DNA of 47,804 bases from IMG/VR virus record IMGVR_UViG_2541047728_000005. One strand, written 5' to 3'. The position numbers and the translations under genes are program-made. The notes beneath the pieces were generated by a model. It made no database searches and was not told the DNA's origin. It was given only the letters and a program-made list of their open reading frames with translations. The DNA is from a virus (lineage: Duplodnaviria; Heunggongvirae; Uroviricota; Caudoviricetes). Within the stretch, counting starts at the first letter, position 1; the number at the start of each line of letters is the position of its first letter. Positions 24,453 to 44,149 of the stretch are shown here, piece after piece.

Positions 24453-24528
24453 TGGTGGCCCCTACCGGATTTGAACCGATGACCGTGCGATTATGAGTCG
24501 CCTGCTCTAACCACTGAGCTAAGGGGCC
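24453..24528 (-). tRNA. tRNA with CAT anticodon, tRNA-Ile2 (lysidine)-like; could alternatively be Met
   Basis: Minus-strand GGCCCCTTAGCTCAGTGGTTAGAGCAGGCGACTCATAATCGC...GGTTCAAATCCGGTAGGGGCCACCA; cloverleaf with 7-bp acceptor stem, encoded CCA; 5' 42 nt match my recollection of E. coli ileX. Confidence 0.85.
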
Positions 24529-35534: not shown

Positions 35535-35557
35535 TAAAAAAGGCCCCCGAAGGGGCC
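35535..35557 (-). terminator. Rho-independent terminator oriented for minus-strand transcripts
   Basis: Minus strand GGCCCC-ttc-GGGGGCC followed by TTTTTTT; 7 nt after stop of small ORF 35564..35686. Confidence 0.65.
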
Positions 35558-35563
35558 TAATCG

Positions 35564-35686
35564 CTACTTGCTGCTAATGTTTATCGTCACATTCAGAGCG
35601 TTATCAGTAATCTTCCAACCCTCCCCATGTGGCGTAAACAAAGCCCCAGTAACAACGATAAAAATACACATACAGTATTTTTTCAT
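35564..35686 (-). CDS. Small hydrophobic peptide (40 aa), candidate type I toxin-like or small membrane protein
   Basis: MKKYCMCIFIVVTGALFTPHGEGWKITDNALNVTINISSK; AAGGG RBS 7 nt upstream; strong terminator immediately downstream. Confidence 0.45.
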   Translation of the reverse strand: MKKYCMCIFIVVTGALFTPHGEGWKITDNALNVTINISSK

Positions 35687-35917
35687 TGTATGGCCCTTAC
35701 AGGCCGTTTCACGGCATCCCCACCGACGAAAACAACGCGAGAGCAAGCACGGCTGCTTGTGCTTGCATGTACGGCAACGGAGAATCCTCCCCTAAAGTCG
35801 GTGCCCGGGTGCGAATCGGCGGGAAGGTCCACAGGTATTTTACGATTATTTTAAGATTAGTAATAGGAAAGAAATTAAACGAAAAAACTCGTTTATTTTC
35901 ACAAAATCAGTAACCTA

Positions 35918-36179: not shown

Positions 36180-36279
36180 GCGCCATTGGTGGACACTTTC
36201 CGAGCCGTAGCAAAATCTACGGTCGGGATTGGAACCCCGATAATCATCATGGCGCATACCGCGTTAGCGGTTTTTTTAT
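36180..36279 (+). ncRNA. Structured RNA segment ending at intrinsic terminator in antirepressor operon leader
   Basis: Hairpins CCGTAG-caaaat-CTACGG, CGGG-attggaa-CCCG, terminator ACCGC-gtta-GCGGT plus TTTTTTT at 36259..36279. Confidence 0.35.
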
Positions 36280-36442
36280 GCGTAAAGCACTGCTACACCC
36301 AAATTATGGTGGGGCGTGCGGGGGAGTCGTAAGACTCGCCGGATTCCATGGTGACCGGTAGTTCCAACCCTGTACGTCTCACCACCCAATGATTGGAACC
36401 AGACGGTGGTGAGTATCCTTAACCTTTAAGGGAACTATCACC

Positions 36443-41859: not shown

Positions 41860-42138
41860 GGGCGAACATATTCACAGGCAAAGCCTGCGTAAGTTAAATA
41901 AAGAAAGTCTTAATAAAAGAAAGTGATTTTGCATTTATTTGTTTAGTGCATCTATTATAAAAAACCATTTGCATATACATATCAGAACTGTGGATAACTT
42001 TATTAGCCGATGCCTGTAAAGGCGATATTTTTGCTGTGTTCAGGTTTAGAGAAAATTAATTTAGATTGTTTTTTGAACAGATATTTTATTGCGACGTAGA
42101 TAATCCTCCGGTAAAACCGGATTCATCATTCAGGTGGG
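41860..42138. other. Candidate plasmid origin region downstream of repA (AT-rich, DnaA box TTATCCACA at 41989..41997 on minus strand)
   Basis: Perfect DnaA box consensus; location immediately 3' of repA as in IncFII oriR; flanking hairpins at 41746..41762, 41781..41804, 41841..41856. Confidence 0.45.
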
Positions 42139-43119
42139 TTAATGTTGGAGTGATTTCCAGGTCTTTCTTAACCTGTTATAACGCTGCTCAACGAGGGATC
42201 GTAAATATGCAAGGTCAGCACCAGGATACATGCCATCAGCAAATTCCTGACTAACCTCTCTGGTGATTTGATGACGAAGTTCGGCCTCTCCCTTTTCCCG
42301 AACAAGACGCGCAGCTCTCTCCGCTGCTTTCTGTTTTGCCTTTATCTCTCTGGCCGTCTTCCTCTGACGCCATACATTCTCCATCTGCTCCTGAATAACA
42401 ATACGCTTATAATCAGCCTCCGTTATCGCTTTTTTAAGCCGTTCGCTATTCTTCGCATTGAAGTAATTAAGTTTCTGGCTAACCGCACGTCTCCATGCTT
42501 GTTCAGTAATACCAACGGTTTCCAGCAGTTGATCACGAATCTCTATTTTCGCTGGCCAATACTGTTTATTCACCCGATCCCAGCGACGTTCATAATCAAT
42601 AAAACCTAACGCTTTCAGTTGCGACAACGCCCTTGTACAGCGCGTTATAGACTTGTTCCCAGCTTCGGATACGGTAGACAGGCCGCAAAAATCAGCCAAC
42701 GCCTCAGCACTAGCCAGAACCCGCTTAGAAATGATGTTTACATGGTGCAAAATCGCAGCGATCACAGCATTAATCGCCCGACGACGATGCTCGTTTATCC
42801 GGCGCTTCCGCTCTGACGGTTGATTAACGTAGAACGCAACCTCACACGTAAGATCACGCCCATTAATGCGCTGTAAAGCATCAGATAACACCAGCGGCAG
42901 CTTGTGCGTATGGTGCTTTGGAGGCTGGAACTCCGGCGACAAATTACAAACGTAAGCTGAACGTAGAGACGGCATTGGTCTATCCATATGTTCGCTCTTG
43001 CGTCCACGGAAAACCAACGTATAATGGGAGTTGTCGAGGCGCCCATGGATTGTTGTTGTTGGTTTTCCGTGGATGTCGCAAGAAGCCCGCAGATTTATCT
43101 GCGGGCTTTTTGTTTCCAT
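42139..43119 (-). CDS. repA: Replication initiator RepA (IncFII RepA1 family); true start possibly internal Met at 42987
   Basis: Segment RRRAINAVIAAILHHVNIISKRVLASAEALADFCGLSTVSEAGNKSITRCTRALSQLKALGFIDYERRWD closely parallels my recollection of R100/R1 RepA1. Confidence 0.8.
   Translation of the reverse strand: METKSPQINLRASCDIHGKPTTTIHGRLDNSHYTLVFRGRKSEHMDRPMPSLRSAYVCNLSPEFQPPKHHTHKLPLVLSDALQRINGRDLTCEVAFYVNQPSERKRRINEHRRRAINAVIAAILHHVNIISKRVLASAEALADFCGLSTVSEAGNKSITRCTRALSQLKALGFIDYERRWDRVNKQYWPAKIEIRDQLLETVGITEQAWRRAVSQKLNYFNAKNSERLKKAITEADYKRIVIQEQMENVWRQRKTAREIKAKQKAAERAARLVREKGEAELRHQITREVSQEFADGMYPGADLAYLRSLVEQRYNRLRKTWKSLQH
43031..43112 (+). ncRNA. CopA-like antisense RNA candidate in repA leader
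   Basis: Plus-strand TTGCGT-N16-TATAAT (42998..43025) followed ~60 nt later by 11-bp GC hairpin agcccgcagat...atctgcgggct and TTTTTGTTT (43084..43115), antisense to repA 5' region. Confidence 0.5.
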
Positions 43120-43585
43120 ATCTGGTCACTTTCCAACCAGACACCCACAATCATAACCACGTTACGTGGTTTTAAGAGAACTCTACCACAACACTTTCGG
43201 TCATGCACGAAGTCTCTCACTGATCGAACGATAATCCACCAGTAAAAGGATCTAAATTGGATCTCGTTTTGCGAGCATCATACTACTGGCCTAACTCCAG
43301 TCAATGATTCCCAGCCAGAAACCTGCGGTAAACTCATCGTTCAGCAATATGCTGTCCGGCTTCAAAGATAAGGTGACATCATCCCTTAACAGCGCGGCCA
43401 GTTCAGTTAAAGGGCTGTTCTGATTTAATGCTGGCCACTCATACCTGGTAATAAGTGGTCAGTCTTAACACTCACTATTTGATTGCACCCGTGTTGACGA
43501 TTTGTTACTGGATATCAGACACGCTGGATAGCCAGTAGAAACATACCATTAAAATTATTACAATAATTGGTCACATGATTATCTT

Positions 43586-44149
43586 ATGCTGAATAATAAA
43601 GATATGAATATTAATGAACTTAAAGACTGTATTCACTATGAAGTAATCGGTAGCGAGCGTCCTTTCTCCTGGCGAAAGGCAATTGTTCGCGCAATAAAAC
43701 ATAGAAGGGTTCGTTATTTATTTTGGTGGCGCATAGCCAAATACCTTTTTGATAAAGGCGGATACTGTCGGAAGATTGCGGGAAAAATAGAACGTTTCAT
43801 TCTTGATAAATATAATGTAACAGTCCCTTTAACTGTAAATATAGGGAAAGGCTTTGATATTTCTTATCTCAACAGTGTTGTTATCGGTCACAAAGTAACA
43901 ATCGGTGAAAATTGTTCAATTAAGCCCGGAGTAACTATTGGACTTCGCGGGGAATTTAATGATATGGATATTGTTATAGGGCATAATGTGACCATTGGTT
44001 GTAATGCCACCATTCTTGGTGGCAAAGTGCGTATAGGAAACAATGTCACAATAGGTGCTCATGCATTGGTATTGCATGATATTCCTGATGATTCAACATT
44101 CATCACTAAATTTCAGTCTGAAGTTATCTGCTCGTCCTCCCGAACATAA
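43586..44149 (+). CDS. Hexapeptide-repeat (left-handed beta-helix) acetyltransferase, moron-like
   Basis: 187 aa with tandem [LIV]-G-x-x-x-x-I-G repeats ([21 protein letters not shown]...[32 protein letters not shown]); AT-rich; convergent with and overlapping 3' end of tfa. Confidence 0.8.

Follow-up and report, generated by a model that had tools for sequence, protein, structure and literature searches.

The replication region of this phage-plasmid raises the question of which control system governs the synthesis of its RepA protein. The window, by which we mean the whole stretch of DNA analysed, is 47,804 nucleotides long and comes from a virus of the Caudoviricetes (IMG/VR record IMGVR_UViG_2541047728_000005). 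A sequence-only reading had called its replicon IncFII-type, with a CopA-like antisense unit in the repA leader and perhaps a tap-like leader sequence.

Gene content, as given in the annotated record, is that of a myovirus-type phage-plasmid: capsid, terminase, portal, sheath, baseplate, tail fibre and lysis genes are accompanied by the plasmid-type genes for ParA and a RelE/ParE toxin-antitoxin pair, and by a single repA. The replicon region (41900-43600) is 100% identical in circular E. coli plasmids of 47.5-50 kb (NZ_CP032259.1 and NZ_CP103471.1), and the Yersinia phages vB_YpM_39, vB_YpM_41 and vB_YpM_44 have ~99% identity across 84% of it. The leader was present in 71 of 5,426 complete E. 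coli genomes, always plasmid-borne (phage-plasmids of ~47-49 kb), with no chromosomal occurrence; other hosts of these phage-plasmids are Salmonella, Klebsiella, E. albertii and E. fergusonii, and in Yersinia they appear as phages. MOB-suite gave no replicon type for these plasmids, and literature searches found no description of the group or of its replicon. One apparent match in the literature, pSLy3, was rejected as it belongs to the SSU5 supergroup, which is unrelated. Genome contigs were scanned once by protein pattern and once by DNA pattern, with zero matches.

Some features elsewhere in the window should be recorded. A tRNA gene at 24456-24528 (minus strand) has the anticodon loop CUCAUAA and anticodon CAU; the matching plasmid record NZ_CP103471.1 has one annotated tRNA, a tRNA-Ile. 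Rfam matches above the gathering score were ryfA (35536-35832, minus strand), isrK (36204-36277, plus strand) and C4 antisense RNA (36302-36389, plus strand), the last presumably part of a P1/P7-type immunity region that controls an antirepressor. Similarity to most relatives ends at ~43333. Beyond that point a hexapeptide-repeat acetyltransferase gene (43586-44149, plus strand) stands where many relatives have a Hin/Pin-type DNA invertase. A 96-nt fragment (43333-43428) matches tail protein genes of P88-like prophages and looks like the remnant of an invertible tail-fibre segment.

The gene under control and the block downstream of it are as follows.

42139 to 42975, minus strand: repA, 278 aa from the conserved start (282 aa if the ATG at 42987 is used); matches to PF02387 and NF040977; start kept in 12 homologues.
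41860 to 42000, no strand assigned: putative origin block downstream of repA, with a DnaA box, an AT-rich stretch and ATGCAAA repeats; conserved in position and sequence.

The repA open reading frame (42139..43119, minus strand) matches PF02387 (IncFII_repA) with E = 1.3e-43 over profile positions 2-272 of 275, but in the 326-aa protein the match begins only at residue 53. PGAP annotates this 326-aa form, which starts at 43119. The suggestion that the first 44 codons are leader was borne out by the relatives: those from Salmonella have ATC in place of ATG 43119, their "extension" is interrupted by stops in frame and by indels of lengths not divisible by three, and RepA in relatives is 274-283 aa long. 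Sequence comparison thereby confirms that the opening 44-48 codons of RepA, as annotated at 326 aa, are a non-coding leader. The accompanying proposal, that RepA starts at 42987, survives in part. This ATG is in frame in the window lineage and in one other sequence, L025, but in the remaining lineages the corresponding AACAUGGA AUG precedes the start by 13 or 17 nt, which puts it out of frame. Conservation points instead to ATG 42975, as the 12 RepA homologues (58-86% identity, 274-283 aa) begin with M[PSI]LRS at the corresponding place; ATG 42987 remains a candidate in the window lineage. An AAGAG upstream of ATG 42987 is doubtful as its Shine-Dalgarno sequence, since it is taken up in a conserved hairpin loop (CGC-AAGA-GCG) and in the outer helix CGCAAG/CUUGCG described below.

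The public protein WP_224158527.1 (326 aa) represents a cluster of 525 member sequences on 505 contigs, and is probably over-extended by 48 leader codons; RepA homologues from Salmonella and others are annotated at 277 aa. In L003 (CP053324.1, an S. salamae plasmid whose record is without annotation) repA ends after 183 codons, and is either a pseudogene or the product of a sequencing error.

By family, RepA passes NF040977 (RepA_IncFII_LM; 232 bits, cutoff 70) and fails TIGR03474 (incFII_RepA; 79.3 bits, cutoff 446.9). Good alignment with RepA1 of R100/R1 had been noted, but similarity to genuine IncFII RepA1 is weak, with 40% identity across 97 residues, and RepA has no significant similarity to RepZ of R64. 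The origin-like block downstream is conserved in all relatives and has a perfect DnaA box, TTATCCACA, at 41989-41997 (minus strand); we read it as a putative origin because the layout is that of IncFII and IncL/M replicons.

The antisense unit lies across the leader, on the strand opposite to repA.

42998 to 43025, plus strand: antisense promoter TTGCGT-N16-TATAAT, identified from sequence; hexamers and spacing invariant in 15 leader variants.
43031 to 43115, plus strand: predicted antisense RNA of 79-87 nt (start 43029-43033, end 43111-43115), from fold, RNAalifold and covariance model.
43038 to 43077, plus strand: recognition stem-loop SL1 (lower stem 43038-41/43074-77, core stem 43043-49/43066-72), from pairing and energy.
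43085 to 43115, plus strand: intrinsic terminator of the antisense RNA (9-bp GC stem, TTTA loop, T-run), from sequence and pairing.

The promoter reported by the sequence-only reading can be read directly, with TTGCGT at 42998-43003, a 16-nt spacer and TATAAT at 43020-43025. Its description as near-consensus fits the -10 hexamer, which is perfect, but not the -35, where only 3 of 6 bases (TTG) agree, and for this reason the consensus promoter scan did not list the site. The motif TTGNNN-N16-18-TATAAT occurs twice in the window against 2.3 times expected in shuffles, which is not significant; at chance frequency, the promoter by itself proves nothing. The GC hairpin and T-run claimed downstream are likewise present, as GCCCGCAGA-TTTA-TCTGCGGGC at 43085-43106 followed by TTTTTGTTT at 43107-43115. 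This terminator was missed by the consensus scan because, we infer, its stem can extend into the T-run.

An RNA of 85 nt (43031-43115) has a predicted fold of -41.1 kcal/mol (z = -6.2), in which a 5′ tail leads into a recognition stem-loop (loop of 16 nt) and the GC-rich terminator forms a hairpin of its own. The loop of SL1 (UUGUUGUUGUUGGUUU, 43050-65) contains UUGG. Sub-threshold Rfam matches on 42700-43600 at E<=10 were Thr_leader, CsrC and trpB, which were set aside as reflecting the hairpin-plus-terminator shape only.

Leaders of relatives were gathered from PLSDB, IMG/VR, metagenomes and Logan contigs. Among them are 17 distinct variants, 15 of them used in the alignment, from about six lineages; a remoter group (L017, L018 and L021) brings the lineages to about seven. 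The 15 aligned variants are not independent of one another. The two hexamers of the promoter, with 16 nt between them, do not vary among the 15, nor do the 5′ tail UGUCGAGGCGCC and the terminator, while the antisense loop differs in length and sequence, is U-rich, and contains UUGG. In SL1 and terminator together, 99% of cells are paired and four pairs are changed on both sides, three of them in SL1; the terminator, with 100% of cells paired, has one A-U to G-C double change, found in 4 sequences. The covariation score of the antisense structure is 0.122 as against 0.063 in shuffles (0/500), slid controls are 36-49% paired, and RNAalifold independently predicted the same structure.

The strongest sign that this structure is selected on the plus strand RNA is the strand asymmetry of SL1. 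Three conserved G.U pairs become C.A mismatches in the mRNA sense, and the energy of SL1 is -13.4 kcal/mol on the plus strand compared to -6.5 for the complement, an asymmetry present in every one of the 15 variants. A covariance model of the antisense RNA also finds a homologous unit in the distant group (30 bits, E~1e-7), whose RepA is 60% identical: TTGCAT-N18-TATAAT at the same position and the same 5′ tail are followed by a different stem-loop and the terminator GGCCCGCUAAUUCGUUAGCGGGCC. An antisense copy-control RNA in the repA leader is very probably real. The ~80-nt RNA that had been predicted across the leader is thus supported as a prediction, by fold, conservation and compensatory changes.

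The mRNA opposite has its own promoter and a long structured leader.

43277 to 43304, minus strand: putative repA promoter, TTGACT at 43304-43299, 16-nt spacer, TATGAT at 43282-43277; 10/12 in the consensus scan.
42976 to 43270, minus strand: structured repA leader of ~295 nt; fold z = -6.8, with conserved blocks and covarying hairpins in the alignment.
43058 to 43072, minus strand: proximal element of the mRNA, CCACGGAAAACCAAC, inside the antisense target; perfect 15-bp complement of the distal element.
43004 to 43018, minus strand: distal element of the mRNA, GUUGGUUUUCCGUGG, identical to a portion of the antisense loop and 3′ arm.
42973 to 42990, minus strand: start region, CAUAUGGAUAGACCAAUG, with both candidate starts (42987 and 42975); alternative partner of the distal element.

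Transcription of repA is predicted to start at ~43270. TTGACT and TAT[GC]AT are kept in relatives, and L017/L018/L021 have the homologous TTGACG-N17-TAGAAT. GATC sequences at 43249-43252 and 43260-43263 follow closely on the predicted start, and nearly all relatives, including L021, have two or three GATC sites at the same place, which hints at an influence of Dam methylation or SeqA on the repA promoter or leader. The leader hairpins include AACCACG/CGUGGUU at 43155-43171 and a covarying hairpin at ~43122-43142. In the minus strand RNA the former has the form AACCACG-N3-5-CGUGGUU, conserved with a variable loop; in the Salmonella relatives a G.U pair is possible in it on the mRNA strand only.

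A long-range helix joins the proximal and distal elements of the leader and is prolonged by the outer CUUGCG/CGCAAG helix. It is 97% paired across the alignment, with 18 cells changed on both sides. In L025 it reads CCACCGGAAUCCAAC/GUUGGAUUCCGGUGG, with three compensatory changes, and proximal:distal duplexes within a lineage reach -28.7 (window) and -31.5 kcal/mol (L025) compared to -8.6 to -18.7 with foreign partners. In L021 the helix has been wholly rewritten yet kept (GUCAGCC-UAA-GCCACAC / GUGUGGC-CCU-GGCUGAC). Wobble pairs do not distinguish the strand on which this helix forms. The sequence common to the antisense loop and the distal element is GUUGG[UA]UU. On the DNA, the complement of the distal element is the spacer of the antisense promoter, and the element can therefore change together with the target without touching the hexamers.

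The distal element has an alternative partner in the start region. When the antisense-complementary stretch is blocked in folding, the two pair in 10 of 10 relatives, and accessibility of the start site drops in 8 of the 10. In the window, the mean unpaired probability of positions -14..+6 drops from 0.57 to 0.28, the predicted closed hairpin covers both AUG 42987 and AUG 42975, and the start region:distal duplex has -16.2 kcal/mol compared to -7.9 +/- 2.6 in shuffles. In seven relatives the corresponding probabilities, 0.54-0.62 when unblocked, come to 0.13-0.41 on blocking, and in L015 0.40 becomes 0.26; the mRNA of L022/L023 is predicted to be closed even without antisense RNA, and blocking changes accessibility little in L017/L018/L021 (0.60 to 0.54). 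The start regions of six lineages differ, each being complementary to its own distal element, with shuffles as good in a fraction of 0.000-0.052 per lineage. Distal:start-region energies do not discriminate own from foreign partners (-14.4 and -13.5 kcal/mol), so that the closed hairpin, as opposed to the long-range helix, is without covariation support.

We regard the region as probably the copy-number control unit of a RepA_IncFII_LM-type replicon, in which an antisense RNA opposes an internal activator strand and so switches the start site. The plus strand promoter at 42998-43025 would be constitutive and give an RNA of ~80-85 nt, fully complementary to the repA leader. In the open state of the mRNA, the distal element would pair with the proximal element (43058-43072), aided by CUUGCG/CGCAAG, and leave the start region free; in the closed state it would pair with the start region (42973-42990) and bury both candidate AUGs. 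Because its loop has the sequence of the distal element, antisense RNA arriving at its target would compete for the proximal element and leave the mRNA in the closed form. As copy number went up, more of the mRNA would be closed and less RepA would be synthesized. Three steps of this scheme are inferred: the antisense RNA would be transcribed, translation would be switched on by the long-range helix, and the closed hairpin would shut it off.

Control of the R1/R100 type would work otherwise, with the antisense RNA blocking translation of a leader peptide that is needed to open the repA start (the CopA/CopT/tap logic). The candidate leader frame runs from AUG 43046 in the target (MGASTTPIIRW...) through the distal element; its AUG is inside the antisense-complementary stretch and is present in most lineages, and ribosomes on this frame would unwind both the distal element and the start-region hairpin. 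However, it is without a Shine-Dalgarno sequence, its stop lies at +26, +97, +121 or +178 from the repA AUG depending on the lineage, CUG replaces its AUG in L022/L023, it has no NCBIfam Tap match, and the CopA model has no match in the region. With its varying stops and start it was rejected as a leader peptide, and R1/R100-type control, which we consider unlikely, is kept only as a minor rival. A tap-like frame at 43150..42980, whose TAG overlaps ATG 42987, was also rejected, having no start codon in the conserved part and a frame that is not kept. No leader open reading frame among the relatives ends at a conserved place near the repA start, and none has a conserved start and stop; a search of NCBIfam with two candidate leader frames gave no match, Tap included. 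The tap-like leader sequence of the sequence-only reading was accordingly dropped.

A genuine antisense RNA whose main action takes a different route, either RNase III cleavage and decay of the leader duplex or premature termination of repA transcription, with the helix serving mRNA stability, seems to us improbable. In antisense systems a duplex of ~85 nt with full complementarity would be a substrate of RNase III, and the complementarity here is of that extent; the mRNA strand also has UUCUU after the terminator hairpin. Yet downstream of the target the mRNA strand has no terminator-like hairpin with a U-run, and a decay or termination route leaves unexplained why the distal element is complementary to both target and start region in every lineage. 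Most improbable of all is that there is no functional antisense RNA, the hairpin serving as a terminator in both directions to shield repA from the tail-fibre operon upstream, and the conserved structures acting in repA mRNA only. The chance-level promoter motif with its weak -35 and the symmetry of the terminator hairpin would fit, but the hairpin accompanies the repA leader whether the gene upstream encodes an acetyltransferase, an invertase or a tail-fibre assembly protein, neither TATAAT nor its spacing varies, even in the group with 60% identity, and the G.U pairs of SL1 are kept though mismatched on the mRNA strand.

The start-site switch that we prefer can be set beside the known replicon systems. 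The search of Rfam for CopA/RNAI-like families that had been proposed as a check was run: CopA, PK-repBA and PK-repZ had no match in the window at the gathering score, nor at E<=10 on 42700-43600. Positive controls behaved as such, with CopA (RF00042) scoring 106 bits on the real IncFII locus L041, PK-repZ 194 bits on R64, and PK-repBA 49 bits on L020 and 57 bits on L005. The PK-repBA and PK-repZ models had no match in L004 or L025 either.

With IncFII R1/R100 the window shares the Pfam family PF02387 of its RepA, an antisense RNA (in the window a predicted one) of similar size, ~85 nt, with two stem-loops transcribed within the repA leader, and a DnaA-box origin (putative in the window) downstream of repA. 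The differences are that the CopA model has no match in the window, that its RepA scores 79 bits where the IncFII model asks 447, that the recognition loop is in the 5′ hairpin rather than in a large terminal hairpin, and that tap and copB, both part of R1/R100, were not found in the window. There is no copB-like gene upstream and no small open reading frame conserved between the repA promoter and the neighbouring gene, which itself varies (acetyltransferase or invertase). The IncFII/CopA/tap label is wrong at the family level.

IncL/M replicons are closer. In pMU604, RNA I ties up bases needed to form the pseudoknot that makes repA translatable (summary in PMC8125031). The IncL/M replicons pMU604 and pCTX-M3 repCBA (RF01089, PK-repBA) have the RepA family NF040977 (RepA_IncFII_LM) in common with the window, and the layout is the same: promoter, leader with countertranscript gene, repA, and origin downstream. 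Translation in IncL/M depends on the pairing of leader bases with a distal sequence beside the repA start, and it is these bases that the antisense RNA occupies (PMC8125031); we propose likewise for the window, where pairing between antisense target and a distal sequence near the rep start is present as the covarying 15-bp helix and would have an activating role.

The window leader nevertheless matches neither of the models for IncL/M, IncB and IncI-alpha (RF01089, and RF01087 PK-repZ). Its recognition stem-loop and terminator are two separate hairpins, where those systems have one. Its activator pairing takes the form of a 15-bp helix (plus 6 bp) made with one stem arm and part of the loop, unlike the short loop-to-distal pseudoknot of IncL/M. 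UUGG is in the antisense RNA and distal element of the window, whereas IncL/M has rUUGGCG in the mRNA target loop; the window mRNA target reads AAAACCAAC, with UUGG on the antisense strand and no rUUGGCG in the target. A leader peptide of the repB/repY type with a fixed stop at the repA start, which is an IncL/M-type feature, was not found in the window family; in L005 an 18-codon open reading frame, read from the sequence, ends just after the repA GUG.

Classical PK-repBA leaders, with a single stem-loop containing UUGGCG and a distal CGCCA, were found in L020 (2369-2489) and L005 (1855-1969), the nearest relatives with a control region built on another plan, whose RepA proteins have 63% and 37% identity to that of the window. 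Closely related RepA proteins are thus served by two control-region architectures. In L021 (2016-2504; also in L017 and L018) the antisense unit and repA are separated by a 162-aa open reading frame, with a 4-nt overlap (2501-2504) between this frame and the start of repA. Its product shares 28% identity (E = 2e-10) with the N-terminal half of RepA, of which it is a paralogue, and has weak winged-helix matches; in these sequences the antisense switch would control this frame first.

Our best reading of the element is a variant of the antisense-plus-activator-pairing control of IncL/M and IncB type, absent from Rfam and undescribed in the literature searched. More tentatively, the window family together with L017/L018/L021 may form a distinct, undescribed class of replication control, a three-element RNA switch free of leader peptide in which the antisense RNA mimics and displaces the activator strand, so freeing that strand to close the start site, and the recognition hairpin is split from the terminator. 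On this reading, loops and helices diverge from lineage to lineage under constant hexamers since the covarying strand occupies the promoter spacer.

No principle of plasmid biology is overturned here, and the control principle itself is well known. The work corrects a widely propagated annotation, the 326-aa RepA of the 525-member cluster, and would give Rfam an RNA family that is now missing there. Once defined, the control RNA would offer a marker for typing and incompatibility of a replicon that MOB-suite leaves untyped, and the locus offers a compact system for the study of antisense control without a leader peptide. If the class is indeed distinct, the divergence of loop and helix around fixed hexamers could mean that incompatibility specificities diversify fast among co-circulating phage-plasmids.
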